Positions 1,020 through 21,086 of a stretch of 32,000 nt of DNA are shown in pieces (position 1 is the first letter of the stretch; every line of letters starts with the position of its first letter). Made by a program: the position numbers and the translations under genes. Under the pieces are notes generated by a model. It was not told the origin of the DNA and ran no database searches. It worked only from the letters and a program-made list of their open reading frames with translations. The stretch spans positions 690,001 through 722,000 of the forward strand of contig NC_021219.1 in NCBI RefSeq assembly GCF_000392435.1, given 5' to 3'. The stretch is from Candidatus Saccharimonas aalborgensis. Lineage in GTDB: Bacteria; Patescibacteriota; Saccharimonadia; Saccharimonadales; Saccharimonadaceae.

Positions 1020-2524
<1,505 letters not shown>

Positions 2525-2670
2525 AGGGAGAAATATGCCTGGCTATCTTGAGAAATCATGGCCAGAGCTAGGTCGGTCTCGTTAATATGCAGAGCTTACA
2601 TATTAATTTACCCTCGCACGTATGTGCAGGGCGAGACGAAAGTTCATTTTGTTAGACAAAACGATAGATG

Positions 2671-2690
2671 TTGCACAACCAAATTGTTAA
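2671..2690 (+). other. 3' arm of the pre-16S processing stem
   Basis: ttgcacaaccaaattgttaa is the perfect 20-nt complement of 936-955, bracketing the 16S as expected for an RNase III-type processing helix. Confidence 0.7.
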
Positions 2691-2693
2691 ATT

Positions 2694-2723
2694 AAAAAAT
2701 CCCCCATAATAGGGGATTTTTTT
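2694..2723. terminator. Bidirectional rho-independent terminator (A-run / 6-bp GC stem / T-run)
   Basis: aaaaaATCCCCcataataGGGGATtttttt. It lies between the end of the 16S unit and the stop of the convergent minus-strand ORF at 2737. Confidence 0.6.
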
Positions 2724-2736
2724 GTGGATAGGTTTC

Positions 2737-2970
2737 CTATCTGTGAAAGAGACCACCAATGAGCATATTGAGAATAAGTGTGTGAAGGTTCAACATCGTT
2801 AAGAGTCCAATCCCACAACCTATAAGCCCCCAAAGTTTATACCGTTCATAGCTACTAACGCCGCTCCCCAAGTTGTCTGCAATCTGTCGATACCAAACTG
2901 TTAGTGCTGCGCCTGCCAACAAAATAAGAAACCCTATGCCGAACCATGTCCAACTAAATTCGTATGTCAT
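2737..2970 (-). CDS. Small membrane protein, two predicted TM helices (hypothetical)
   Basis: 77 aa with two clear hydrophobic segments (WFGIGFLILLAGAALTVWY; LWGLIGCGIGLLTMLNL). On the minus strand TGgTATACT ends 7 nt before the ATG. The terminator lies just downstream. Confidence 0.5.
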   Translation of the reverse strand: MTYEFSWTWFGIGFLILLAGAALTVWYRQIADNLGSGVSSYERYKLWGLIGCGIGLLTMLNLHTLILNMLIGGLFHR

Positions 2971-2987
2971 ATATCATAGTATACCAC

Positions 2988-3016
2988 TTGTCATTTTAGG
3001 TAGTGTACTGTACTAT
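2988..3016 (+). promoter_or_regulatory. Promoter for the tRNA-Ala/Ile/Val cluster (TTGTCA-17 nt-TACTAT)
   Basis: TTGTCA at 2988-2993 and TACTAT at 3011-3016 with a 17-nt spacer, about 20 nt upstream of tRNA-Ala. Confidence 0.5.
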
Positions 3017-3037
3017 GGACAGAGTTCGTTTCCAAAT

Positions 3038-3114
3038 GGGGGCATAGCTCAGTTGGCTAGAGCACCTGCTTTGCAAGCAGGGGGTCCAGGGTTCGAGTCC
3101 CTGTGCCTCCACCA
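3038..3114 (+). tRNA. tRNA-Ala (anticodon UGC), CCA encoded
   Basis: Cloverleaf folds by hand: acceptor GGGGGCA/TGCCTCC includes the G3:U70 alanine identity pair, anticodon loop cTTTGCAag, T-arm CAGGGTTCGAGTCCCTG, and terminal ACCA. Confidence 0.95.
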
Positions 3115-3244
3115 AGATAAGCGATGAATGATAAAATTGATCGTTTATCTTGGTTCCCTGGAATGAGGAACCACGCACCTAATATATGGGGTGAACCAGG
3201 CTTCGGTCTGGATCACTCCACCAGATTGTTTAACACTGACCTAT

Positions 3245-3321
3245 GGGCGATTAGCTCAGCTGGTTAGAGCGCGTCACTGATAATGACGAGGTCGGAGGTT
3301 CAAGTCCCTCATCGCCCACCA
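3245..3321 (+). tRNA. tRNA-Ile (anticodon GAU), CCA encoded
   Basis: GGGCGAT..ATCGCCC acceptor, anticodon arm CGTCA-CTGATAA-TGACG, T-arm GGAGGTTCAAGTCCCTC, and terminal ACCA. Confidence 0.95.
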
Positions 3322-3352
3322 GTTAGTGTTAATCAGTCATGTACTACGGGAC

Positions 3353-3429
3353 GGGCGCTTAGCTCAGTTGGCTAGAGCATCTCGTTTACACCGAGAGGGT
3401 CGGGGGTTCGAGCCCCTCAGCGCCCACCA
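3353..3429 (+). tRNA. tRNA-Val (anticodon UAC), CCA encoded
   Basis: GGGCGCT..AGCGCCC acceptor, anticodon arm TCTCG-TTTACAC-CGAGA, T-arm GGGGGTTCGAGCCCCTC, and terminal ACCA. Confidence 0.95.
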
Positions 3430-3470
3430 AAAGAAATACCCTATCCGAAAGGATGGGGTATTTCTTTTGG
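3430..3470 (+). terminator. Rho-independent terminator after the tRNA cluster
   Basis: aaagaaataccctatcc-GAAA-ggatggggtatttcttt is a long stem with a GNRA loop and a T-rich 3' side, starting immediately after the tRNA-Val CCA. Confidence 0.65.
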
Positions 3471-3605
3471 TGAGAGTCCTGAAAGGACTTTGAATACCCG
3501 AAGGGGGTTCGGTGGAGCGAGAAAGGAAACTCGTGCTTGCACGTGTCCCTTTCGAGCGGAAGAGCGAATAATGTGAGCGACCCTTGTGTTGGTTTTTAGT
3601 TCCAG

Positions 3606-3644
3606 GGGTCGCGGAACGTGACCGAGCCCCTCAGCGCCCACCAA
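3606..3644 (+). pseudogene. Displaced 3' fragment of tRNA-Val (att-like direct repeat)
   Basis: 3623-3644 (cgagcccctcagcgcccaccaa) is identical to 3409-3430, the tRNA-Val 3' end plus 1 nt. Weaker similarity (gggtcg) extends upstream, but the T-loop is disrupted. Confidence 0.7.
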
Positions 3645-3711
3645 TCGGCAGTCTAATGTTTAAGTGAATAAGGAGCTAGCCTGAATACGAAGCTTGAGGT
3701 ATCATTCTTTC

Positions 3712-4293
3712 ATGGATACTTTCTATGTAGTTGCCGAGATGACGTATAAGGGTAATGATTTGGGAGTATCTGTCGATACAAACGCGTCAGATGGTAAGCA
3801 ATCAAAAGCTTTTGTAATGATAGCCCTTGGCTTCCTGCTCAGGGTAGGATTAACCTTATCAGGAAAATATCAGAAAGAATATCTGAGGTTCATGGAGGGG
3901 GGAGTACAAGGGGTTCATGATGCCATGGACTATTTTGAGTACCAGTATTGTGCTGTACATAAAATCGATAGGGTAGGGGTTCTAGATGGACGTATAGCCA
4001 GGCCAGACCGAGAGATTAGTTTCTATATGCACGCAATTGAAGGAGGTTCGCACACCACAAAGTATCGCCAAGAAGGGTTCAGGGTTTTTGATAGACGCGT
4101 AGAACTAGACGCGCTTCTAGGGGCGTTATTGTTGGCGGATTATGTTTTTGCTCGACACTCCGAACAACCGTTATTTGCAGAGGATTATGACATCGCAATT
4201 AAATATCTAGCGTCCAATGTGGTACATAATCGATACAAAATGTCTGTCACCGAAGAGTTAAAACTGATCGACGAGATTGCATATGAGTTCTAG
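3712..4293 (+). CDS. Hypothetical protein (orphan ORF inside the rRNA locus)
   Basis: Long ORF of 193 aa from ATG 3712. The ORF track starts it at TTG 3694. TATCAT at 3700-3705 ends 6 nt before the ATG. I recognise no domain. Confidence 0.6.
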   Translation: MDTFYVVAEMTYKGNDLGVSVDTNASDGKQSKAFVMIALGFLLRVGLTLSGKYQKEYLRFMEGGVQGVHDAMDYFEYQYCAVHKIDRVGVLDGRIARPDREISFYMHAIEGGSHTTKYRQEGFRVFDRRVELDALLGALLLADYVFARHSEQPLFAEDYDIAIKYLASNVVHNRYKMSVTEELKLIDEIAYEF

Positions 4294-4338
4294 TCTGCAT
4301 GTTTTTAGCTATTATCCAGGTATTTTTACAAAAATCCC

Positions 4339-4367
4339 TTGCAATTCTCGCAAAAAGCGAGTACAAT
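4339..4367 (+). promoter_or_regulatory. Promoter for the 23S-5S unit (TTGCAA-17 nt-TACAAT)
   Basis: TTGCAA at 4339-4344 and TACAAT at 4362-4367 with an exact 17-nt spacer, about 300 nt upstream of the 23S. Confidence 0.6.
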
Positions 4368-4603
4368 AGACCCTTAGTAAGCGAATGTTCATATGAACCT
4401 CTGGCGATTTTGGTACAAAACAATCCGAAACGCGAGAGGATTTTTTATCGCGAAAATCACAACGATATTGCCCTGGACACGGTAGTTGACGGGTGGTACG
4501 ATAGGCTGAGTTACGAAACCACCAACACCTTAAACGCAGACAAAATTACATCAAGCATAAGCACGATGTATAGAAATGTGCGCTTAAGATATGGGAGCAC
4601 GAA

Positions 4604-4616
4604 TCTTAACAATTTG
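4604..4616 (+). promoter_or_regulatory. boxA-like antitermination element in the 23S leader
   Basis: tcTTAACAATTTGa shares the TTAACAATTTG core with the 16S leader (937-947) and resembles the bacterial boxA consensus (..CTTTAACAA..). Confidence 0.4.
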
Positions 4617-4673
4617 ATGATGTAAGAAATGAAAGATTGACGGTAATGATGTGGTTGTGAACAACAATTACTA

Positions 4674-7900
<3,227 letters not shown>

Positions 7901-9861: not shown

Positions 9862-9891
9862 AAAAAACGTTCGTTAGCGCGAACGTTTTTT
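9862..9891. terminator. Bidirectional terminator between convergent genes
   Basis: aaaaaacgttcg-ttagcg-cgaacgtttttt is a 12-bp stem with an A-run and a T-run. It overlaps the last codons of the minus-strand ORF. Confidence 0.6.
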
Positions 9892-10347
9892 AGTGCTATA
9901 TCGCCTTAGGGCACAGGTTCGCGCTTCATTGACGCGCCATTCATGCTGACAGGCGGCGCAGCGGTAGTGATTTGACGCAGCCTGTAGCCCGGTTGAGTTG
10001 CAGTGAGGACAGAGAGAACGACTATGTAGCCAGTCTCTATAGGTATCAAGTGACTCCTCGATGTCGGAATCATCGATGATGATTTGGTACATATCGGCGA
10101 GCTCTCGGGCTTTGTCCCAGGCGGCTCGTTCCATCTCAAGTAATTGTGTATCAGTCTGGTACCCTTGATGTCCTAGTATCGCATGGCCTACTTCGTGCAA
10201 GAGATACGCGTCACACTTGCGACGCGAGGGGTCGTAGGTGACGGTATGCGTGGAATAATCCCAGCCAAAAGTCGTTCCCTTGGTGAAATTAAGGGGATTA
10301 TCTTTACTGGCTTTGAGCTGCTCTATCAGCCAGGAAGTCTTTGCCAT
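9874..10347 (-). CDS. Putative zinc metallopeptidase (HEXXH, ImmA/IrrE-like) with C-terminal Cys4 zinc ribbon
   Basis: LLHEVGHAILGH motif, then CPHC..(16 aa)..CAAC. 157 aa. The start overlaps the 3' end of the ROK gene by 44 nt. Confidence 0.6.
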   Translation of the reverse strand: MAKTSWLIEQLKASKDNPLNFTKGTTFGWDYSTHTVTYDPSRRKCDAYLLHEVGHAILGHQGYQTDTQLLEMERAAWDKARELADMYQIIIDDSDIEESLDTYRDWLHSRSLCPHCNSTGLQAASNHYRCAACQHEWRVNEARTCALRRYSTKKRSR

Positions 10348-11140
10348 AATAGTAACATCCGTAAATTACTGCCTGTTCTGGGTGTTGAGCCTGGACAAAC
10401 TTGGGGCAGGGGATATGAGGCGGCAGGTGCTCGCGTAATATATCGACCAGCATATCGCCGTAGCGATCAAAATAGGTTCCGACGCTTCCGCCAATAATAA
10501 CGATGTCCGGCTGAATAATGGGGATAACAGCGAGGAAACCACGGCTAATGCGATCGGAGATCTGATGCCAGGTGCGTTTGCTGGTGATATCTCTTGCATA
10601 TTTTTTGTAGGTCTTGACAATGGCATGGCCGGAGGCAAATGATTCCCACTGCCGGACCTTACCATCATATTCAATCAATGCGTGACCAGCTTCGCTGTTG
10701 CGCAGGCCTGGATCGATACGTCCATTAGTAATAACACCGGTTCCGATACCTGTACTGATGGTGACATAGAGCGAGCAGGTAGGAATCGGGTGTAGGCTCC
10801 GTGTCTCGGCTAGTCCTGCGAGCTTGGCATCATTTTCAATCAATAGCGGTACATCTGGAAGGATATCGTGGAGCATTTTGGCAATGGGTACATCTATCCA
10901 GCCGCTTCCAATATTGGGGCACCATACTGCAACCCCGTCTTTCACGACGCCAGGTAGTGCCAGTATAATCGCATCGACTTTTTTTTGTCCGTATTGTTCA
11001 CGCACAACATTCTTTAAAGTAGTTGCATATTCCTTTGGGTCTGCTGGTGTGGGGTATTTGATCGACTCTCCCATTTTGCCATCACTACCAAATGACGCCA
11101 CAAGAGTTTTTGTCCCACCCGTATCAATTGTTATCAACAT
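10304..11140 (-). CDS. ROK family sugar kinase (glucokinase-like)
   Basis: N-terminal ITIDTGGTKT ATP-binding motif, ENDAKLAGLAE, and ISTGIGTGVI..G, as in ROK/glucokinase proteins. 278 aa. Confidence 0.85.
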   Translation of the reverse strand: MLITIDTGGTKTLVASFGSDGKMGESIKYPTPADPKEYATTLKNVVREQYGQKKVDAIILALPGVVKDGVAVWCPNIGSGWIDVPIAKMLHDILPDVPLLIENDAKLAGLAETRSLHPIPTCSLYVTISTGIGTGVITNGRIDPGLRNSEAGHALIEYDGKVRQWESFASGHAIVKTYKKYARDITSKRTWHQISDRISRGFLAVIPIIQPDIVIIGGSVGTYFDRYGDMLVDILREHLPPHIPCPKFVQAQHPEQAVIYGCYYYGKDFLADRAAQSQ

Positions 11141-11221
11141 ATTTCCAGTGTAGCATAAAAAATAAATTGCCTTTTACTCTCAAAGAGGATATAATAATGA
11201 GCAATAACTTGAGAGGTGCAT

Positions 11222-11683
11222 ATGACACGGTTACGACAGCAGGGTTCGGTTCTCGGATATGTGCTGGTGGGGGCGACATTAGTAGCATTATTAGTAGCGG
11301 GTATTTATTTTATCCGTCGAAATACCTCCGCGGCGGTAGTTGCGCAAAATACTAACCAAACAGCTTCGAGCGATCAATCTACCTCGACGGGTCAGGCATC
11401 TACAAACAGCGATAACCAAACAAATCAGACAACAGGCAATACCCAGAAGAGGGAGGAACAAAAAGCTCAGGATCAGAATGCCGCAGCTGCTGCTGAGAAC
11501 AAAACGAATTCACCCGCTACCGATTCATCACAGACCACAAGTGGGACGTCATCATACTCGAGCACAGGTGGTTCATCCTTGCCTCATACCGGCCCCGCGG
11601 AGGATATGTTTGCTGGCATTCTGGGTGCTGGGTTGTTAGCGGGTTCTGTGACGGCCTATCGACGTTCACGTGCCATACTCTAG
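11222..11683 (+). CDS. LPXTG-type cell-wall-anchored low-complexity surface protein
   Basis: N-terminal signal/TM segment (VLGYVLVGATLVALLVAGIYF), a long S/T/N/Q-rich region, then LPHTG, a hydrophobic stretch and the RRSR tail. I chose ATG 11222 (GAGAGG 5 nt upstream) over the ORF-track GTG 11216. Confidence 0.7.
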   Translation: MTRLRQQGSVLGYVLVGATLVALLVAGIYFIRRNTSAAVVAQNTNQTASSDQSTSTGQASTNSDNQTNQTTGNTQKREEQKAQDQNAAAAAENKTNSPATDSSQTTSGTSSYSSTGGSSLPHTGPAEDMFAGILGAGLLAGSVTAYRRSRAIL

Positions 11684-11783
11684 ACTGAGAGCGCTCACTA
11701 GTGTACAATAAGAGATGAGTCTTGGGCGAGCATTTTTTTGCGAGCACTAAGAAAATAATAGCAACTATAAGAGAGGAGTTTTG

Positions 11784-12905
11784 GTGAGTTCGTGCTCTTT
11801 TTATAGAGTGACGGATTTCATTGATAACTTATTTATGGCAACAAAAGCCACTATCACAATGGATGACCTGCTTGCGGGTGACAGCGTTAAACAACTTACT
11901 GCAGGTGAGGTAGTAATCGGACATGTTCTTACGGTCCGAAAACATGAAGTATTGATTGATCTTGGAGCACAGGGTGTCGGTTATGTGCCCCGCCGTGAAG
12001 TTGGATTTAGCCGTCAGTTGAATATCGGCGACGAAGTGACTGCCAGTGTGGTAGATGCGGAGTTGGACAACGGTTACAGCTTACTGAGTCTGAGGAAAGC
12101 TGCAAAGGATCGTGGCTGGGAAGAAGTTCAGGCAAAGATGGATGAGGGAGAGATCATCGAAGTAGCCCCTTACGATGCAAATCGCGGCGGTATGCTTGTC
12201 GAATACGAGGGCGTACGTGGTTTCTTGCCAGTATCGCAGCTTTCTGCTGAGCATTACCCACGCGTAGGAAGTGCCGACAAAGATGAGATCTTAGCTCGCC
12301 TTAATGCACTCGTTGGTCAATCTTTGAAAGTAAGGATTTTGGACTGCGATCGAAAAGTAAACAAACTCATTTTTAGCGAGAAAGAAGCGATTAAAGATGG
12401 GTTAGCAGCTCGATTTGAGAAGTTAAAGATTGGCGATACGGTTAATGGCGTGGTGACGGGTGTTGTAGATTTCGGAGCATTTGTGAATGTCGATGGCATT
12501 GAGGGGCTCGTGCATATTTCTGAGATCAGCTGGGAGCGTGTCAATAATCCAAGTGATTATGTGAAAGTTGGTCAGACAATCGAAGCTAAGATCATCTCAA
12601 TCGATAAAGAACGACTTAGCTTGAGCATGAAGCAGCTCACAAAGGACCCATGGCTTGATGAGGTTGAAAAATTCAAGAAGGGCGAAAAAGTAGAAGGAAC
12701 GGTCACGCGCATTACACCATTCGGCGCATTTGTGCAAATCAGTCCAGCAGTTGAAGCACTTGTCCATATCTCTGAACTAGGGAGTGGCAGTGATGTCGAC
12801 CCAGAAAAAGTCTTTACGCTCAATGAACGCAAAGAGTTTGTTATTCTTGATGTCGATAAGGAAAATCGCAAGATTTCACTGAGTCTCGCCGGTAAAAAGA
12901 AATAA
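11784..12905 (+). CDS. rpsA: 30S ribosomal protein S1 (four S1 domains)
   Basis: Four repeats of the S1 OB-fold pattern (G..v.G.V..v..fGafV.l.g..Gl.h.Se.s). The start is ambiguous: TTG 11781 (ORF track), GTG 11784 (5 nt after GAGAGGAG) or ATG 11835. Confidence 0.88.
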   Translation: MSSCSFYRVTDFIDNLFMATKATITMDDLLAGDSVKQLTAGEVVIGHVLTVRKHEVLIDLGAQGVGYVPRREVGFSRQLNIGDEVTASVVDAELDNGYSLLSLRKAAKDRGWEEVQAKMDEGEIIEVAPYDANRGGMLVEYEGVRGFLPVSQLSAEHYPRVGSADKDEILARLNALVGQSLKVRILDCDRKVNKLIFSEKEAIKDGLAARFEKLKIGDTVNGVVTGVVDFGAFVNVDGIEGLVHISEISWERVNNPSDYVKVGQTIEAKIISIDKERLSLSMKQLTKDPWLDEVEKFKKGEKVEGTVTRITPFGAFVQISPAVEALVHISELGSGSDVDPEKVFTLNERKEFVILDVDKENRKISLSLAGKKK

Positions 12906-12955
12906 GCTTACGCATATATAAAATAGTTTCTTTGATAGAGACGGAAAGGAGAGCC

Positions 12956-14734
12956 ATGAGCCAGCCAGAGAAGAAAACGCTCATTATCGCTGATTCAATC
13001 ACGGTAGGTGAGCTGGCCGAAACGCTTAATCTTCCCGTGACACAACTTGTCGGAGAACTGTTTAAAAACGGTATTGTGGCGACAATCAACCAGCGCATTG
13101 ATTTTGAGACCGCTACTATTATCGTGGGTGAGCTCGGTCTTGATGTGGAGCTGCAACGTAAACAGGTTGATACGACAGCAGTACAACGGCTTCATACTCC
13201 GTCGGAACGAGCTGTCGATCGACCACCAATCGTCGCAGTAATGGGCCACGTCGACCATGGAAAAACCTCATTGCTTGACGCGATTCTCAGCACTAAGACT
13301 GTCGCTGGTGAGGCTGGCGGGATAACGCAGCATATATCTGCGTATCAGACTGTGCGAAATAACCGACCTATTACCTTACTTGATACTCCAGGCCATGAAG
13401 CGTTTGCTGCACTTCGTCAGCATGGCGCAACACTTACAGATGTGGTGGTGATTGTAGTTGCGGCCGATGATGGAGTAAAACCACAAACAATCGAGGCAAT
13501 TCGATTTGCAAGAACTGCTAACGCAAAAATTGTTGTGGCGATAAACAAAATCGACAAAGAAGCTGCAAATGTCGATATGGTCAAGGCGCAGCTAGCAAGC
13601 GAACACCAACTTAACCCCGAAGAATGGGGCGGTGATACGGTGATGGTGCCAGTAAGTGCAAAAACGCGCGAGGGGCTGGATAAGCTTCTTGATATGGTAC
13701 TGTTGGTCGCGGATATGGAAGAACTACGAGCCGATGTTGATGTGCCGGCGGAAGGTCTTGTCATTGAAGCCCACATGGAAACAGGTCGCGGATCAGTAGT
13801 GGGTCTCTTGGTTGAACAGGGTATGCTGAAACCTGGACATTTCCTCGTTGCAGGAATCTCTTATGGAAAAGTCAGGACTCTGCTTGATTTTGCAGGGAAA
13901 CCACTGAAGTCAGCGGGTCCATCGACGCCCGTGACAGTCACCGGGTTCAAAGTGTTACCACAATTTGGTGATGTGTTCACCACTGTAAAAAACGAACGTG
14001 AAGCGAGGCTGCTCGTCGAGAGAGCGCGCCAAGAGGCCGAAAAGTTTGCCGCCAGTACAAACGTAACTGGTGCTGATCTCCTAAAACTTATGACACAAAA
14101 GCACGACACCCAAGAGCTGAATGTTATCGTGAAAGCTGACGTGCAGGGTTCGCTGACGTCAGTAATGGATAGCCTACGTATGGTAGACACGGGTGGTGAA
14201 GTGAATCTAAGAATTATCGGTAGTGGGGTGGGTAATATCACCGAGAACGATGTTCGACTTGCGGGTAGTTCAAGTGCTATTATCTACGGATTTAATATCG
14301 AGTTGCCGCCTGCAGTGAAGCGACTTGCCGCAAGAGATAAAGTAGAGGTGAGACTCTATAAGGTGATCTATGAGCTCCTTGATGATGCGCGAAACACTAT
14401 AGAAAGACTACTTGTGCCTGAAGTTGTTGAGACAGAAGTTGGTACGATGACACTGAAGGGTATATTTAGGACCGTAAGAGACGAAGTGATATGTGGCGGT
14501 GAAGTAACACATGGTAAAGTGACTACCGGCTTGCTTGTCCGCGCAAAGCATGCAGGTGATCAGCTCGCCGAAGTCGAAGTAGTGAGTGTGCAGCGACAGC
14601 AACAAGAAGCCAAAGAGGTGTTTGAGGGTGAAATGTGCGGGTTGAGTCTCAAGACTCACAAAAAACTCTCACTTGAGATCGGTGATACACTTGAGTTCTT
14701 TACCCGCGAACTCGTAAAACGTACCCTCAAATAG
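12956..14734 (+). CDS. infB: Translation initiation factor IF-2 (short form, 592 aa)
   Basis: G-domain motifs GHVDHGKTSLLD, DTPGHEAF and NKID, followed by the IF-2 domains. I chose ATG 12956 (AAGGAG 5 nt upstream) over TTG 12932. Confidence 0.95.
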   Translation: MSQPEKKTLIIADSITVGELAETLNLPVTQLVGELFKNGIVATINQRIDFETATIIVGELGLDVELQRKQVDTTAVQRLHTPSERAVDRPPIVAVMGHVDHGKTSLLDAILSTKTVAGEAGGITQHISAYQTVRNNRPITLLDTPGHEAFAALRQHGATLTDVVVIVVAADDGVKPQTIEAIRFARTANAKIVVAINKIDKEAANVDMVKAQLASEHQLNPEEWGGDTVMVPVSAKTREGLDKLLDMVLLVADMEELRADVDVPAEGLVIEAHMETGRGSVVGLLVEQGMLKPGHFLVAGISYGKVRTLLDFAGKPLKSAGPSTPVTVTGFKVLPQFGDVFTTVKNEREARLLVERARQEAEKFAASTNVTGADLLKLMTQKHDTQELNVIVKADVQGSLTSVMDSLRMVDTGGEVNLRIIGSGVGNITENDVRLAGSSSAIIYGFNIELPPAVKRLAARDKVEVRLYKVIYELLDDARNTIERLLVPEVVETEVGTMTLKGIFRTVRDEVICGGEVTHGKVTTGLLVRAKHAGDQLAEVEVVSVQRQQQEAKEVFEGEMCGLSLKTHKKLSLEIGDTLEFFTRELVKRTLK

Positions 14735-14768
14735 GGTACGTTTCTACGGAAAGACTTAGAGGGCTTCT

Positions 14769-15080
14769 CTATTGTATGTTGTCTGCATTGGCGGCTATTT
14801 CACCCATAAGAATATCATATTCATCCTGAGCGATCTCTTGGAGATCAGAGACGTTTGCAACAAGCCAGTCTTGTACGGCCTGCGTGTTTCCAGACTCCTG
14901 GACATCTACTAATTCTTTTAGCTGATTATCATCGAGAATATTGGTTACTTCTGTGCCAATGCGTTCTTGAAGTGTGCTATTGAATTGCTCGATCAGGGTA
15001 TCCGCATTCGCGTCGGCAAGCTGAATACCGATGAGCGCCAGAGATTCGCGGGTAATAAGGGGGGGTTGTTGCTGGTTCAT
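14769..15080 (-). CDS. Small acidic helical protein, paralogue A of a three-member family in this window
   Basis: 103 aa and strongly acidic. It aligns by eye with the 21444 ORF (..G(I/L)..L...(I/L)(E/D).F...L..R(I/V)GT......L.D.QL.E......V..W(L/I)...V...QE). Confidence 0.65.
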   Translation of the reverse strand: MNQQQPPLITRESLALIGIQLADANADTLIEQFNSTLQERIGTEVTNILDDNQLKELVDVQESGNTQAVQDWLVANVSDLQEIAQDEYDILMGEIAANADNIQ

Positions 15081-15139
15081 ATTATTTTTTATCTACCTTC
15101 TGTTCTTATTGGGCTACTACTGTCGTTTTATTATACTTG

Positions 15140-15976
15140 TTAGAAACGATTTTGTTCACGGTGAGTGTCACGGGTGGTAACAAATGCTTCCTTTGCGGCG
15201 GTCGTTGAGGCACGTAACTCATGATAGCGGGCTTGACCGCGGGCCATTGCTACTCGACCAAGGATACGCGCGCGTCTAGCCGCCGCTTTTGATTTTTCAT
15301 GGGTATCGCCTGCAAATGACTCAACACTCTTTCGTGCGGAACGTGCGCTTTCAATAACATTTCGTTTCATAGTCATCCATTTCGCATGTCGACCCCATCT
15401 TCGTGTCTCAGCCTCATTTGCGCGTTTTTCTAAGCGTTTACGAAAGTTTGCCATCGCCTCTTTAGAGGCACCCGCAACATCAGAAACGTACTCAGCACCC
15501 TTATTGATCTTGTTGCCAACTTTTTCGCTGCCATCGGCCACCCACTGACCGGCACGGTCAAGTAAGTTGCCAGTTTTTTTAGTAGCATCGGTTACGTTCT
15601 CCTTTGCAGAGTTGAGTGCTTCATAAACAACGTCCCTAGAAAAGCCAACATTACTTTTGATATCATTTTTGACAGATTCCACGCCTCTCGTACCCACTTT
15701 TCCCGCACCCTCAACAGCAATAACGGTCAATCCGAGCACTCCTCGGCCGATATTACCTAGTATTGCTTTACCGCGCTCAAGTCGTTCACGACCCGCAAGT
15801 AGCTTACTGTCAACAAATGAGGCGACTCGCTCAGATGCTTGTGCGGCGTTAAGGCCAAAGTCACGGATACGATCTCCGGTGCTGGTTGTGGGAGCTTCGT
15901 GTCGGCCAGTGTATTCTTCATCGGCTGGCTTGCTCTCTTCGGGAGCGGCGTGTCGAGGCTGGTAGGTTTCTTTCAT
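15140..15976 (-). CDS. Hypothetical membrane-associated protein with long charged amphipathic-helix region
   Basis: 278 aa: a disordered acidic N-terminus, one hydrophobic segment (AILGNIGRGVLGLTVIAVEGAG), then about 180 aa of K/E/A/R-rich helical sequence. AAGGA lies 8 nt upstream of the ATG. Confidence 0.6.
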   Translation of the reverse strand: MKETYQPRHAAPEESKPADEEYTGRHEAPTTSTGDRIRDFGLNAAQASERVASFVDSKLLAGRERLERGKAILGNIGRGVLGLTVIAVEGAGKVGTRGVESVKNDIKSNVGFSRDVVYEALNSAKENVTDATKKTGNLLDRAGQWVADGSEKVGNKINKGAEYVSDVAGASKEAMANFRKRLEKRANEAETRRWGRHAKWMTMKRNVIESARSARKSVESFAGDTHEKSKAAARRARILGRVAMARGQARYHELRASTTAAKEAFVTTRDTHREQNRF

Positions 15977-16191
15977 GAGGGATTTCCTTTTTTGATTTTT
16001 ATATGTTTATATTATCATTATAAGCATAAATAGTATAAAAAGTCAATACAATTAACACAATAAAAATGACAAATAGCAACTCATCACGGGAGAGAAATAG
16101 TATTGCGCTTGTGGTAAACCCTGTGTTACCATAACCAAGTAAGTAATATACATCAAAATATAGAGAAAAAATGACAAGAGGATAGGTCGCC

Positions 16192-16503
16192 ATGCAACAA
16201 GATCCGATGAATGATTTTATCAATGATATGCTTGATAAGAAGCAGCTCCCGGGGCTTGAGGAAGAGGGGGTCCGAGAGACCGTCATTGATGATATTCGGA
16301 CACGACTCTTGAACCAGATTGACAGAGCAATCCTTGAGGCGATGCCAGAAGATAAAATGGATGCACTTAACTCCCTGCTCGATAGCGGTGCGTCAGATGA
16401 AGAAGTCCAACGACTTGTTGGTGAGTCCGGGGTTGACATTCAGAAAGTGACACTGCAAACAATGTTGCGTTTTCGTGATCTCTATTTAGGAGAGGAAGCG
16501 TAG
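16192..16503 (+). CDS. Small acidic helical protein, paralogue B (divergent)
   Basis: 103 aa and acidic, with the same length and heptad-like pattern as paralogue A. AGAGGA SD upstream. The stop lies 9 nt before the giant ORF. Confidence 0.65.
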   Translation: MQQDPMNDFINDMLDKKQLPGLEEEGVRETVIDDIRTRLLNQIDRAILEAMPEDKMDALNSLLDSGASDEEVQRLVGESGVDIQKVTLQTMLRFRDLYLGEEA

Positions 16504-16512
16504 TAGAGAAGT

Positions 16513-19500
16513 ATGTCTGAGCGACAGGCGCGGCACGATACGTATACTGCTGAAGCGCAAGCAGAGCGTGCGAAGTATCTGACAATGACTAATAAAGAGA
16601 TTGCTGGTGAAGTGAGCGATCTTATTAATGGGCAACTTCACGTGGCAAGTAACGATCGTGTCCAGTATGCGGCTGGGACAACAGCCGCGCACGAGGGAAG
16701 GGCAGGAGAAAGAGTTGGCGGGCGGTTTGTGAGTCAGTCGCAACTCGAAGACATCGCTGCGTTCGCAGATCAAATCCGCGATGGCTTAGCGGATCGTAAT
16801 GAGCCGGGTACCGTCGTAGATGACCATACCGGCGACGATGTAGACCAAGATGCCTACATGCAACGGCATGATGCGCACACGCATGAAGATGAGGCTCCCG
16901 CAGAGGGACCAGATATGCCAGATGATGAGACATCGGATGAGCCGACGACTGATATTTCGCCGTCCACAGAGCCAGAGATGCCTATCGCACGCGAGGACGC
17001 AGCCGATGAGCCAAAAGCGCCTTCTGAACTAAAGCTCTCTTTTGTGGATCAGTCAGTGGATGCAGAAGACGCAGCTCGTTATGCAGCAGAAGCCCGCTTG
17101 ACAGAAGAATTAAATGCTCCTGGCGGCAAAATCAAGAGGTTTTTGAGGAATGCCTGGAAGGGAAGTCTTGCACGTGAATTCTATATCTTAAAGTATAAGA
17201 AACATGCACTTGAGCGCATCAGTGAGGGGCAGGATATCAACCTACTGAACGACGGGTACACTAGTGACCAGCGTGTCGATGCGCAGATGGCACTTGTTGA
17301 TCGATTTAGTTCAGAATATGATGAATCGGTCCATACTACGGCAGGTGAACAACGAAAAGAACTCGCTCCAGATACTGAGTTTGCCGTAGCCACAAAAGAT
17401 CTTATTCGCAGATATGTATCTGGTGAAATCACAGATGCAACTGCACTTCGTGAGGAGCGTGGTCGCTTGCTCGAACGGTTTGGCGGACAACAAAACGGTC
17501 CTCTCATTGGGGAAGGCAAAGTTCGTGTCGATAATCTACTCGCGATAGCGGAAGCTGTCAAAGGTATGGTAGCGCATGGTGAGAGCATCGAACAAGTACT
17601 TGAAGGCATGAAGATTTACTCTGGTGAAGCACGAGAGAGTGCGCGTTACAAAGTGGACTATGGCAAAATTGACTCAGTCATGGAAAAGATGCAGCAGTCA
17701 AAGATCGGATCGCTCGTTGGACCCGAAACAGTCGGTATTGCCGCTGCGCTTGCTCTCACTATTAGTAGGGTGGGTCGTGGAACGGTCCTGAAAGCGACCG
17801 GCGTAACACTCATTCCAGGAGTGATGGGGGGAACACTCGGTGCGCTCAGGGAAAATAAACGCGTCAAAGAAGAGCGAACGCAGCATACGCGTGAGGTAAC
17901 TCAAGGGAGAGATTTCGTTAACGGCAAGCGTCGTGCTGAGATGCAAGAAACAATGTATGAGACGGTTAGCGCGCAGCAAACGACCGATGAGCTAAATCGG
18001 CTGATGGAGGGTGGCCTCGATACTCCCGAAAAAGTCAGGGCTATGTATGAAGCACTTGCTGGCGTGCAGGCGCGGGTTGACATATCTGATGCGAAAGGGA
18101 GTGAGCTATTCTCTTACTCACAGGGGCAGAGATCGGTTGAGATGGGGCTACTCGATATTGCTCGTGGGCGTGCCAAGAAAGCACTCGAAGGTCATTTGGC
18201 TGATCTTGATCCTGCATATCGTTCTTCACTCGGAATGACCGATAGTGATACCGTAAATCAGGCATTGCAACGCTGCGTGAGCGCGGTAGAGTCGATCCAG
18301 CAAGATATGAGCGCAAAAGATAAGGCATTTCAACGCCTTAAGGCTCGTCGAGTTGCTACGGCGGCTGCCCAGGGCGTTATTGTTAGCTCATTGTTTAGCG
18401 TTGGCGTACAAGAAGGAGTTGCATTTGCTAACCCCTCATATGATGGTCTCATTGAGCATATGGTGCATGGGGGTGCACCATCTCCTGATGGAACGCAGAC
18501 AGTACTTGAAGGGTGGTTTCATGGTCAAACTGGAGCTGGGACAAGCGCGAATGTTATCGCGCCAAGTAGTACCTATAATCAACTAAACCTCGGTACGCAC
18601 AGTGGTGCACTTGAGCTGCCATCGAACTATACAATGTCAACTAATCCAAATGGTTCGCTCTTTATTACTGACCCGACAGGAGCAAAAATAGCAGACAATC
18701 TCACGACCAATCCCAACGGTACGTTCACCACTGCTTCCCTAGCTGACTTGCAGCACGCAAATATTAGCGTTGTGGATACTACAAGTACCGTCAATACGCC
18801 CCATAGCGTTACGCAGCAAGTGACAGCAAAGCAATTTTTGGTAAATCATCCAGGTGTCGGGACACCGGCCGGACGAGATTTTTGGTATGACAACAATACT
18901 CCGGCACCAAAGTTTGACAAAAATGAACTTGGTCTTCACTGGGGTGGAGCAAATAGTACGGGCGTAACAACTAACGGTACTGTCCAAATGAGTGTCGCCA
19001 CAATGACAGGAAACGGATCTTTCCATGGTCTCGAACACACAAACTGGGCGACTGAGGCTGACCAGGGGCATCTCAAACTAGCAGTTTCATTGTCGAGGGA
19101 TACACAGGCCATGCCGATTATCTTGGATGTTCATGCGCACGATGGGGTAATCGACATCCCAACCGACCCAAGCGTCATGCCACCGGGAATCTTTACGATC
19201 GAGAATGGCCATGCAGTCTTTCATGGTGCCTATGCTGAGGTGGTGCAGACAAATGGTATGAGCCAAAACGGAGAGCTTCACATCCGTCCACTCGCAACGA
19301 TTACTGGGCATAACACGCTACATTCAATGGCAGATACAGTCACGACACACGAAAAGCAAGTAGTACCGCATTATAAGCTGACTCCCCCTGTTCATGAGGG
19401 TATCGATCGTGTCGTTGAGCCCATCGTGATGCCACCACTGGTACTTCGCCGGCCGCTTGAAGCGCTTGTTAAGCGCCGCAACGGAGATCCAGGCCCGTAT

Positions 19501-21045
19501 GGCTATGGTGGTGGGGCCAGCGGAGAATATGGACACCGCCAACTCTCTCTAGAGGCTATTGAGCAGATGCGGTCCGAGCGTTCACCAAGTTTACTTACCG
19601 ACTCTTCCGCCGATCTAAATCCAAAACATGAACTTGATTGGTATAGATCAGAGCTGGAGAGGAGGCGGGGAGCGGATGGGTTGAGAAAGATAGTTGATTT
19701 TGTAAAGAATACGCCGGAACTGGCAACTCTTTCACCAGAGACAAAATCGATAGTCGTTTTACCCGTTGGAGCAGCATTTGAGTCAGAGAATATCTATAAA
19801 GTGCTCTCTCTTTATGCTCAGCAAGATCCCCCTTCACTTGAGAAAACGACATTCCTTCTCAATGTAAACTGGCTCGATGTAGCAAAGGGTGATCCAAAGC
19901 AGGCTCAAGCAATCGCTAAAACACTTGCTGAGATTGAACGTGCTCGTCTTAACTTTCCTCAGCTTAAGCTGGCTGTTATTCAAAACGAATACAATAAGGA
20001 TACAGTTGAAGCGACCGGTGGCGTAATCGGTTATGTTGCCGCAGATATGGTTGATACTGCACTTATGGCATTACAGGTGGCCATGGAAGATGGTAGAATG
20101 AACGGCGATCATGAGGTCGGCATACAACGTAACGACGTTGACACGCTGGGCATATCTCGACACTACTTGAGTAGATATCAAGAGGCACTTGACCAGAATC
20201 CACAATCAGACGTGTTTAGGGGTATGACAAGATTTGATGCGAGGTCTGCCGAACGTTATCCAGGATGGGGAATTGTCAATGACCTTAATTTGATATTAAC
20301 GACACAACACTATTCCCATGGAGGAGCAAATACCGATGGACCGAATTTTTATGTACGTGCTTCAGCGATGGCTGCAATAGGTGGACTTGGTGATGTATCA
20401 CGTTGGAGTGGCGCGGGCTCTGACGATAGTAATGTGGGGATACGGGTTACCCACGCAAGAGGTGGAACTGGCGGTGTGGGCTATAGTGGTGTGAGCGGTT
20501 CAACCGGTGCTTTAGTAACATCTAGTGGTGGAGACAGAAGAGTAGGTAAGTATGTTGCTGGCGCAAATATCGATGTAAACGCTGATCGCTTAATACCACT
20601 CTATCTGGGTGGGGCATGGTGGGGTTCGGCGTGGCGTTCTGATGATGAAGGAGCATATCACAAGGGACCGGGAGGTTACGCAGCGAGAGATGCGAATAAG
20701 ATGAATATCAAAAAAGAGAGATTTGACGGGTCTAAAGATACTGAAGCATTTCAGCGATTACAAACCGCTATTACCTATGAGGTTGGACGTTTGGACGAAA
20801 CGACACGTCAACGACTGCTTGCGCGTTTCTTTCGCAATGCTCCTGCAGGATCGTATATCATCAAGCCTTTGCCGTCGGGTGGTGTAACGTTTGAATTTAC
20901 AAAAGTAGGGCGCGAGTTTGTTAGTCAGCAGATGAAATATGATTCACAAGGTCGTCGACGCAGCTATGGGGAGCGTAAGACCCACGGTCTCTATGGACGG
21001 ACACCACTGAATAAGGAACCTGCGCTTGTTGCGCCAATTCGATAG
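16513..21045 (+). CDS. Giant (1,510 aa) multi-domain membrane protein with C-terminal GT-A/GT2-like glycosyltransferase motifs
   Basis: Uninterrupted 4.5-kb ORF. It has an acidic, disordered N-terminus. Hydrophobic segments lie at about aa 398-447 (two helices) and about aa 614-640. The region at aa 650-1000 is N/T/G-rich. A Gly/Tyr linker follows, and then the motifs SIVVLPVGAAFESENIYKVLSLY, NDVD, GPNFYVRASAMAAIGG and GSDDSNVGIRV..RG. Confidence 0.8.
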   Translation: MSERQARHDTYTAEAQAERAKYLTMTNKEIAGEVSDLINGQLHVASNDRVQYAAGTTAAHEGRAGERVGGRFVSQSQLEDIAAFADQIRDGLADRNEPGTVVDDHTGDDVDQDAYMQRHDAHTHEDEAPAEGPDMPDDETSDEPTTDISPSTEPEMPIAREDAADEPKAPSELKLSFVDQSVDAEDAARYAAEARLTEELNAPGGKIKRFLRNAWKGSLAREFYILKYKKHALERISEGQDINLLNDGYTSDQRVDAQMALVDRFSSEYDESVHTTAGEQRKELAPDTEFAVATKDLIRRYVSGEITDATALREERGRLLERFGGQQNGPLIGEGKVRVDNLLAIAEAVKGMVAHGESIEQVLEGMKIYSGEARESARYKVDYGKIDSVMEKMQQSKIGSLVGPETVGIAAALALTISRVGRGTVLKATGVTLIPGVMGGTLGALRENKRVKEERTQHTREVTQGRDFVNGKRRAEMQETMYETVSAQQTTDELNRLMEGGLDTPEKVRAMYEALAGVQARVDISDAKGSELFSYSQGQRSVEMGLLDIARGRAKKALEGHLADLDPAYRSSLGMTDSDTVNQALQRCVSAVESIQQDMSAKDKAFQRLKARRVATAAAQGVIVSSLFSVGVQEGVAFANPSYDGLIEHMVHGGAPSPDGTQTVLEGWFHGQTGAGTSANVIAPSSTYNQLNLGTHSGALELPSNYTMSTNPNGSLFITDPTGAKIADNLTTNPNGTFTTASLADLQHANISVVDTTSTVNTPHSVTQQVTAKQFLVNHPGVGTPAGRDFWYDNNTPAPKFDKNELGLHWGGANSTGVTTNGTVQMSVATMTGNGSFHGLEHTNWATEADQGHLKLAVSLSRDTQAMPIILDVHAHDGVIDIPTDPSVMPPGIFTIENGHAVFHGAYAEVVQTNGMSQNGELHIRPLATITGHNTLHSMADTVTTHEKQVVPHYKLTPPVHEGIDRVVEPIVMPPLVLRRPLEALVKRRNGDPGPYGYGGGASGEYGHRQLSLEAIEQMRSERSPSLLTDSSADLNPKHELDWYRSELERRRGADGLRKIVDFVKNTPELATLSPETKSIVVLPVGAAFESENIYKVLSLYAQQDPPSLEKTTFLLNVNWLDVAKGDPKQAQAIAKTLAEIERARLNFPQLKLAVIQNEYNKDTVEATGGVIGYVAADMVDTALMALQVAMEDGRMNGDHEVGIQRNDVDTLGISRHYLSRYQEALDQNPQSDVFRGMTRFDARSAERYPGWGIVNDLNLILTTQHYSHGGANTDGPNFYVRASAMAAIGGLGDVSRWSGAGSDDSNVGIRVTHARGGTGGVGYSGVSGSTGALVTSSGGDRRVGKYVAGANIDVNADRLIPLYLGGAWWGSAWRSDDEGAYHKGPGGYAARDANKMNIKKERFDGSKDTEAFQRLQTAITYEVGRLDETTRQRLLARFFRNAPAGSYIIKPLPSGGVTFEFTKVGREFVSQQMKYDSQGRRRSYGERKTHGLYGRTPLNKEPALVAPIR

Positions 21046-21086
21046 GTGTATCATAAGGATAAGAAGTATAAAAGGGAAGGTTAGTG

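Follow-up and report, generated by a model that had tools for sequence, protein, structure and literature searches.

What might a protein of 1510 amino acids be doing when it resembles no annotated family? The question is raised by a giant gene in a stretch of 32,000 nucleotides of the Candidatus Saccharimonas aalborgensis chromosome (positions 690,001 to 722,000 of NC_021219.1), referred to as the window in this article. The Saccharibacteria (TM7), like other Patescibacteria, live attached to a bacterial host, and a function has been assigned to few of the large proteins conserved among them. The whole giant protein has no match at E <= 1 in Pfam-A or NCBIfam, and PDB sequence searches with it returned no relevant match. 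A previous interpretation made from the letters of the DNA, referred to here as the sequence-only reading, had pointed to glycosyltransferase motifs near the C-terminus in the order expected for a glycosyltransferase type A (GT-A) fold. The analysis described below indicates that residues ~1037-1510 are a genuine GT-A glycosyltransferase domain, one that is probably active. The features discussed are collected with their coordinates in Table 1.

All five motifs are present in this open reading frame (ORF), in the proposed order and at the proposed positions. They are SIVVLPVGAAFESEN... at residues 1079-1105, TFLLNVNW at residues 1113-1120, NDVD at residues 1207-1210 (nucleotides 20131-20142), GPNFYVRAS... 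at residues 1276-1294 and GSDDSNVGIR... at residues 1302-1317.

The fold was modelled with AlphaFold2 from a 44-sequence alignment covering residues 1040-1510. The model has a mean predicted local distance difference test score (pLDDT) of 88.7 and a predicted template modelling score (pTM) of 0.90, and it shows the strand and helix alternation of a Rossmann-like GT-A core in domain residues 40-250. The DxD motif lies immediately after the fourth beta-strand (domain residues 164-167) and SDD lies immediately before the helix at domain residues 269-281, which is the canonical GT-A placement. When the model was compared with the PDB by Foldseek, ranks 1-43 were all glycosyltransferase-type structures, and a probability of 1.00 was reached for ~40 GT2/GT-A structures and almost no other kind. 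The top match is hyaluronan synthase 8smn (E 6.9e-6); Xenopus and Chlorella-virus hyaluronan synthases lead the list, and further matches include BcsA, the chondroitin polymerase K4CP (2z87), PcManGT, GtrB, chitin synthases, GlfT2, LH3 and COLGALT1. In PMC7185993, K4CP serves as the prototype structure for the core common to GT-A folds. Among the Foldseek matches in BFVD, a library of viral structures, GT2-like proteins dominate as well. Although hhalign aligns E. coli PgaC weakly (E 0.013, probability 3%), the motifs stay in the proposed register, pairing IPC..NEE with LPVGAAFESEN, DGD with DVD, and FRRSAL..VG with VRASAMAAIGG; hhalign against E. coli BcsA gave no alignment. The GT-A, family-2-like fold suggested by the sequence-only reading is thus borne out by the model, by the structural matches and by the conserved residues described next.

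Conservation was counted across 150 family representatives (<=50% identity) aligned to the hidden Markov model of the domain. NDVD had been taken for a DxD-type motif, and its two aspartates prove to be nearly invariant among homologues, as does D1305 of the xED-type motif (Table 1). Other residues are kept to a similar degree, namely N1119 and N1278 (144/150 each), G1276 (142/150), P1084 and E1090 (137/150 each), and ~15 further polar residues are invariant alongside DxD and xED. G1276, the candidate glycine of the G-loop, and N1278 precede the strand-helix segment VRAS...GG and are aligned with the corresponding part of PgaC in the weak hhalign match. In the C-terminal subdomain (residues 1321-1510) a Gly/Ser loop varies and five residues, D1354, R1359, Y1364, W1374 and R1392, are invariant; the counts for three of these are 142/150 (R1359), 133/150 (W1374) and 135/150 (R1392). 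The DxD, the xED-type Asp and the candidate G-loop glycine correspond to core GT-A motifs defined in PMC7185993. Known dead GT-A domains, e.g. COSMC, have lost DxD and xED (PMC7185993). The retention of motifs that dead GT-A domains lose argues for an active enzyme. It appears to be metal-dependent via D1208 and D1210, and it probably inverts configuration using D1305, the candidate catalytic base.

Some observations weigh against this assignment. There is no sequence-level match to any glycosyltransferase family in Pfam, NCBIfam or the PDB; PDB sequence and profile searches with the domain and with family profiles gave no relevant match, and Pfam searches with distant family members and with alternative architectures gave no glycosyltransferase match. 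The sequence-only reading had looked to profile and structure searches for a GT-A relationship, and the structure search supplied it whereas the sequence and profile searches did not. Foldseek gives modest TM-scores of 0.30-0.38 for the query of 471 residues, only about half of which is conserved GT-A core. In the alignments, no invariant or near-invariant histidine (the C-His) is found downstream of the xED-type motif. Loss of the C-His is documented for several bona fide GT-A families (PMC7185993).

The domain shares much with the CAZy GT2 enzymes such as K4CP, PgaC and the hyaluronan, cellulose and chitin synthases. These have in common the predicted Rossmann-like GT-A core, a first strand followed by an acidic residue (here IPVAAxxE), a DxD after beta4, a G-x-N...R segment (the candidate G-loop) and an acidic xED-type motif that starts an alphaF-like helix. 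The giant-protein domain differs in having N1119 at the end of beta2, where Asp is usual, and in adding a family-specific C-terminal part of ~190 residues, which is a soluble alpha/beta subdomain in the AlphaFold2 model. Unlike the GT2 synthases, the giant protein has no transmembrane helices after the glycosyltransferase domain; its hydrophobic helices lie ~400-650 residues upstream with a beta domain in between. In contrast to the processive synthases (BcsA, PgaC, and the hyaluronan and chitin synthases), it has no hydrophobic segment after residue 1190, and QxxRW is absent from the giant protein sequence and from the family consensus. Because both a conserved C-terminal His and QxxRW are lacking, the domain is assigned neither to GT2 nor to the processive synthases. 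On the evidence of the structural model, it represents a GT-A family that is new and unannotated, and its closest neighbours by structure belong to GT2.

The family is large and uniform. Five relatives were returned by the first homologue search and 140 by a profile search, and when 1.84 billion representatives were searched exhaustively with HMMER, the family came to 620 clusters at 50% identity. Its members are nearly all 1300-1900 residues long and carry the domain at the C-terminus, one GT-A type prevails, and Pfam annotation is present in none of them. Among 36 genome loci with the giant gene, most are labelled Saccharibacteria or Saccharimonadales. The giant protein is a near-universal, strongly conserved core protein of Saccharibacteria with a single architecture.

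Three hydrophobic helices and the lack of a signal peptide had also been noticed in the sequence-only reading, and both are confirmed. The helices H1, H2 and H3 (Table 1) follow an acidic N-terminus, and the highest Kyte-Doolittle mean over 19 residues (KD19) in residues 1-380 is 0.82. Hydrophobicity was checked in 38 full-length aligned homologues and more widely in 150 representatives. The three segments stand at the same positions in 38/38 of the former and in most of the latter, and no fourth segment is seen in the window protein, the 38 homologues or the 150 representatives. A fourth transmembrane helix missed between H3 and the glycosyltransferase domain was considered and rejected, as neither the window protein nor the 150 relatives offer a candidate; the highest KD19 in residues 641-1060 of the window protein is 0.94, while that of H3 reaches 2.2 in homologues. 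Of 125 full-length representatives, 70 have a segment with negative Wimley-White energy, in most cases where H1/H2 lie. The family-wide pattern of H3 is RRRVAxAAAxGxxxGxxxGxxxQE, and H2 has PGxxxGxxxG. Glycine-zipper and PGxxxGxxxG-type motifs are typical of membrane helices that pack or oligomerise.

The mean number of lysine plus arginine residues (K+R) in the family is 4.2 before H1, 2.0 in the H1-H2 loop, 5.0 after H2, 5.0 before H3 and 0.95 after H3. For a topology with the N-terminus inside and the C-terminus outside (N-in/C-out), the sums are ~14 on the predicted inner side and ~3 on the outer side, a distribution which fits N-in/C-out and contradicts a two-crossing N-in/C-in model. A second AlphaFold2 model, spanning residues 311-1510 (pLDDT 76, pTM 0.49), has H2 and H3 each continuous with helices of the charged domain between them. 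The beta-rich domain that follows H3 carries the motif RDFWYDN...NELGLHWGG and has a surface-protein-like composition, with 3.8% K+R and 38% S+T+N+Q+G in residues 641-985. The matches listed by Foldseek against the PDB for the 1200-residue model were GT-A structures, with none for the beta-rich domain. The best prediction from these data is N-in/C-out with three crossings and an extracytoplasmic GT-A domain, which we hold with moderate confidence.

The location outside the cell, as the sequence-only reading had proposed, is supported by the three conserved segments, the lack of a fourth and the charge bias, but it is a prediction and several points count against it. The helices of the window protein are only marginally hydrophobic (KD 1.2-1.7), and on the Wimley-White octanol scale their best 19-mers score +0.3 kcal/mol for H3 and +2.1 kcal/mol for H2. 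H1 comprises just ~14 uncharged residues (E404 to R419) and is modelled by AlphaFold2 with low confidence. Nucleotide sugars that could serve as donors are not expected on the outside of a bacterium, and an outward-facing Leloir-type GT-A enzyme would therefore have no obvious donor.

If the predicted topology is right, the cytoplasmic helical N-terminal region would be followed by the hydrophobic hairpin and the glycine-zipper signal-anchor, which together would serve as membrane anchor. The beta-rich domain, as stalk or binding domain, the RRPLE junction and the flexible linker would then present the GT-A domain on the outer membrane face, where it would modify envelope or host-surface glycans. 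Such display can be likened to that of Golgi type-II glycosyltransferases, in which the order of parts is alike (cytoplasmic N-terminus, signal-anchor, stem and a GT-A domain away from the cytoplasm), although the topology of the giant protein is predicted. Golgi enzymes obtain their donors via nucleotide-sugar transporters into a closed lumen, whereas no such closed donor compartment is known in a single-membrane bacterium. The giant protein also differs in its N-terminal part, which has ~600 residues and an extra hairpin, and there is no sequence relationship between the two.

Relatives with other C-termini or without the scaffold were also found. A single-sequence homologue search with the N-terminal region found nothing, and a metagenome scan with the N-terminal module, using a five-sequence alignment, led to 17 loci. 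Two of them, L043 (5335-9966) and L046 (1672-5559), carry a divergent, type-2 GT-A domain (IPAWMEE, EDAD, GEDLTIGERI), which is homologous through the core (hhalign probability 97.9%) and diverges after the xED motif. In L056 (5956-10350) the scaffold, the beta domain, the junction (here RRPME) and the upstream DUF5663 gene are kept, and the C-terminus is an unrelated region of ~690 residues, the sole non-glycosyltransferase C-terminus seen. This C-terminus contains an IIDHHG string and was considered as a DHH phosphoesterase, for which Pfam, NCBIfam and the PDB give no support. After the giant gene of L056 lies a gene for 486 amino acids with a weak match to a WipA-like phosphatase. Two further loci, L037 (5746-7626) and L038 (1991-3883), encode stand-alone proteins of ~630 amino acids with a GT-A core (IPVAGAQE, DADT, AED/HEE). 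The DxD is invariant in the family alignments even when these distant relatives are included, and S-D-D1305 aligns with GED of the type-2 domain and with AED/HEE of L037/L038. The two stand-alone proteins have no Pfam match, and their lack of a hydrophobic segment together with several cysteines suggests that they are cytoplasmic. They come from metagenome-assembled genomes labelled Bdellovibrionota and Pseudomonadota and may represent a cytoplasmic ancestor of the GT-A domain, or binning errors.

The giant gene stands between small genes with which it forms a recurrent cassette. The upstream partner gene ends 10 nucleotides before the giant ORF, and a member of its jackhmmer family ends 3-20 nucleotides upstream of the giant gene in 35 loci; the orthologue in L056 matches Pfam DUF5663 at E 1.3e-6. 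A member of the downstream partner family (~100-115 amino acids) starts 11-70 nucleotides after the giant gene in 28 loci. Thus the arrangement of small gene, giant gene and small gene recurs in ~28-35 loci, at differing chromosomal locations. The place of the DUF5663 gene at 21444-21893 is likewise filled in L043 and in Southlakia epibionticum (SEML1_0163). A fourth small acidic helical ORF near the giant gene lies at 14769-15080 on the minus strand. Among the four, three are DUF5663 or weakly DUF5663-like, and the ORF at 21084-21404 belongs to a separate, unannotated family. The DUF5663-type proteins on both sides probably work with the giant protein. The small partner proteins all lack a signal peptide, so their probable site of action is the part of the scaffold that lies in the cytoplasm. 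A literature search on DUF5663 and on Saccharibacteria glycosyltransferase effectors found nothing relevant, and promoter and terminator scans around the cassette stayed at chance level.

In the window and in L043 the cassette lies between the genes for IF-2 and fmt, while in a Saccharibacteria contig of 629 kb (L001, 10001-13966) it lies between rpsJ (S10) and rplC (L3). The cassette of that contig thereby splits the otherwise universal S10 ribosomal-protein operon. Divergent from the cassette in the window is an ORF of 278 amino acids (15140-15976, minus strand) that matches no family and has a single short hydrophobic stretch; L043 has a 306-amino-acid ORF that is like it by size and position alone. 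Other genes of the window, which has a G+C content of ~48%, encode ImmA/IrrE-like and ROK proteins, S1, IF-2, fmt, def, priA, a phosphoribosyltransferase (PRTase) and recJ. With most relatives of the giant protein labelled as Saccharibacteria or Saccharimonadales, the window is taken to be a core region of a Saccharibacterium chromosome. The window also holds a complete rRNA operon with 16S (1020-2522), tRNA-Ala, tRNA-Ile, tRNA-Val, 23S (4688-7896) and 5S genes. The 16S-23S spacer (2523-4687) of ~2.2 kb contains the three tRNAs and two ORFs without a Pfam match. The 23S match is 3209 nucleotides long against a model of 2925 positions, which suggests an insertion of ~280 nucleotides.

Table 1. 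Coordinates of the giant gene, its predicted parts and neighbouring features (positions in the window).
Feature	Position	Strand	Basis
Giant ORF, scaffold protein bearing the GT-A domain, 1510 aa	16513..21045	+	ORF call and homologues
Acidic N-terminal extension, aa 1-169, lineage-specific, without signal peptide	16513..17019	+	~1345-aa homologues begin near aa 170
Conserved helical N-terminal region, aa 170-397, predicted cytoplasmic	17020..17703	+	Kept in family alignments
Hydrophobic pair H1 (aa 398-420) and H2 (aa 425-446), putative transmembrane hairpin	17704..17850	+	KD19 1.45 and 1.19
Charged helical domain between H2 and H3, aa 447-611, predicted cytoplasmic	17851..18345	+	Flanks with ~5 K+R per 15 residues each
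H3, aa 612-640, Ala/Gly-rich glycine-zipper helix, putative signal-anchor	18346..18432	+	KD19 1.68
Beta-rich domain, ~aa 680-975, Ser/Thr/Asn/Gly-rich	18550..19437	+	AlphaFold2 beta strands, pLDDT 80-90
RRPLE junction motif, aa 979-983, closes the beta domain	19447..19461	+	R and E near-invariant in alignment
Disordered Gly/Tyr/Arg-rich linker, aa 984-1036	19462..19620	+	pLDDT <50 over aa 984-1010
GT-A catalytic core (predicted), aa 1037-1320, encloses interval 19741-20470	19621..20472	+	AlphaFold2 and Foldseek
DxD motif D1208-V-D1210, family consensus DAD	20134..20142	+	D1208 145/150, D1210 148/150
xED-type motif S1303-D1304-D1305, N-terminus of alphaF-like helix	20419..20427	+	D1305 147/150
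Family-specific C-terminal alpha/beta subdomain, aa 1321-1510	20473..21042	+	Alignments and AlphaFold2
Upstream partner gene, 103 aa, weakly DUF5663-like	16192..16503	+	Pfam DUF5663 E 0.062
Downstream partner gene, 106 aa, helical, acidic tail, no Pfam match	21084..21404	+	Family member after the giant gene in 28 loci
DUF5663 protein, 149 aa	21444..21893	+	Pfam PF18908 E 7.7e-19
Spacer ORF, 199 aa, no Pfam match	3694-4293		
Spacer ORF, 108 aa, no Pfam match	4299-4625		

The whole reading, in which an active GT-A domain is tethered outside the cell on a membrane-anchored scaffold, is the one that we consider somewhat probable, and it has to be weighed against others. One that is possible but distinctly less probable is an ordinary cytoplasmic, membrane-tethered glycosyltransferase, with an even number of crossings (e.g. 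H2 and H3 only) or with peripheral or re-entrant segments, in which the beta and GT-A domains would use nucleotide sugars at the inner face to make an envelope polymer or a lipid-linked glycan. Given the availability of donors this is biochemically the simplest solution. The closest structures (hyaluronan, cellulose and chitin synthases, PcManGT and GtrB) act at the cytoplasmic membrane face, L037 and L038 are soluble and apparently cytoplasmic, and the short uncharged stretch and low model confidence of H1 and the marginal energies of the window helices point in the same direction. However, a two-crossing N-in/C-in arrangement would break the positive-inside rule, with the flanks of ~5 K+R outside and the acidic flank after H3 inside. 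Many homologues have a clearly hydrophobic H1, so low a K+R content as that of the beta domain is atypical of cytoplasmic domains, and the gene neighbourhoods in the window, L001 and L043/L056 show no linked genes for polysaccharide export or lipid carriers. The GT-A fold could also belong to a protein that is no enzyme, i.e. a pseudo-glycosyltransferase serving as lectin or scaffold, or the motifs could be coincidental. The missing sequence-family match would agree with this, and catalytically dead GT-A scaffolds such as COSMC do exist (PMC7185993). The fold match rules out coincidence, and DxD and xED are kept in at least 145 of the 150 divergent sequences together with the invariant polar residues, which makes a non-enzyme very improbable.

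The sequence-only reading had also raised delivery of the domain into a host cell, for which there is no direct support and which we regard as unlikely. Here the protein, or a fragment cut near RRPLE or the linker, would leave the epibiont as an effector or toxin, the hairpin and glycine zipper would insert in the host membrane, and the GT-A domain would use host UDP-sugars in the host cytoplasm, on the model of the clostridial, Legionella and NleB/SseK glycosyltransferases; the small acidic DUF5663-type neighbours would be secretion chaperones. Marginally hydrophobic hairpins and glycine zippers are a typical trait of toxins that insert conditionally, the small acidic flanking genes resemble a chaperone-effector gene layout, and the C-terminus is modular after a conserved junction (L043, L046 and L056). 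The Saccharibacteria type IV secretion system (T4SS), which is essential and has been proposed as a protein exporter, has no known substrates (PMC10633639). Like the giant protein, TcdA/TcdB (GT44), Legionella Lgt/SetA and NleB/SseK have a DxD GT-A domain in a large multidomain protein, with hydrophobic helical segments and a putative binding domain as further likeness, and the organism here is an obligate surface parasite. In TcdB, however, the domain order is reversed, the glycosyltransferase being C-terminal in the giant protein; no autoprotease domain was recognised, and glycosylating toxins are absent from the listed structural matches of the giant-protein models. The giant protein has no signal peptide or known secretion signal, and its gene belongs to the conserved core and not to the variable virulence genes; it is near-universal and uniform across at least 620 clusters and is located among translation genes, not in variable islands. 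The variation at the C-terminus recalls polymorphic effectors superficially, but a single non-glycosyltransferase C-terminus was seen and the small downstream gene does not switch with the type of C-terminus. The 106-amino-acid downstream gene was considered as an immunity-like partner specific to the type of glycosyltransferase and was rejected, because the same family is found, inverted, beside type-2 genes and hence does not behave like an immunity gene.

A bolder version, which we think doubtful, is that this is the first bacterial Leloir-type GT-A enzyme to act beyond its own cytoplasmic membrane, either at the junction of epibiont and host or delivered into the host. At the junction, donors would leak from, or be taken from, the host. 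Delivery would involve cleavage near RRPLE or the linker, insertion via hairpin and zipper, DUF5663-type chaperones and the T4SS as a possible export route. In either case the scaffold would be a general platform, for display or for delivery, with exchangeable C-terminal enzymes.

A comparison with Southlakia epibionticum ML1 bears on the role of the scaffold. A run of 12 genes is syntenic between the window (9874-25987) and SEML1_0156-0167, in the shared order ImmA/IrrE, ROK, hypothetical, S1, IF-2, the slot of the giant gene, small DUF5663-type genes, fmt, def, priA and PRTase. The slot is filled by SEML1_0161, a hypothetical protein of 767 amino acids that was scored essential by transposon sequencing and has no Pfam or Foldseek annotation (PMC10633639, Tables S1 and S2; essentiality in Table S1). 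Its length is about that of the scaffold minus the C-terminal enzyme domain, and the small genes SEML1_0162 and SEML1_0163 (DUF5663) sit next to it as in the window; equivalence to the giant protein is by position alone. On this positional basis, SEML1_0161 may be a version of the scaffold without the enzyme domain. If it is homologous, the essential function resides in the scaffold, with the GT-A domain as a module added to it.

These findings give a concrete predicted activity to a conserved giant protein of hundreds of lineages that is encoded in a translation-gene setting, and whose chromosomal slot is taken by an essential gene in Southlakia epibionticum, a genetically tractable species. 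Should the predicted topology be wrong, there would still be a new, unannotated GT-A family worthy of entries in Pfam and CAZy, with a conserved DUF5663 partnership. If the topology is true, a transferase of the nucleotide-sugar type would stand outside the cell at the interface of parasite and host, which would raise the question of its donor's source and suggest that glycans of the envelope or of the host surface are remodelled directly.

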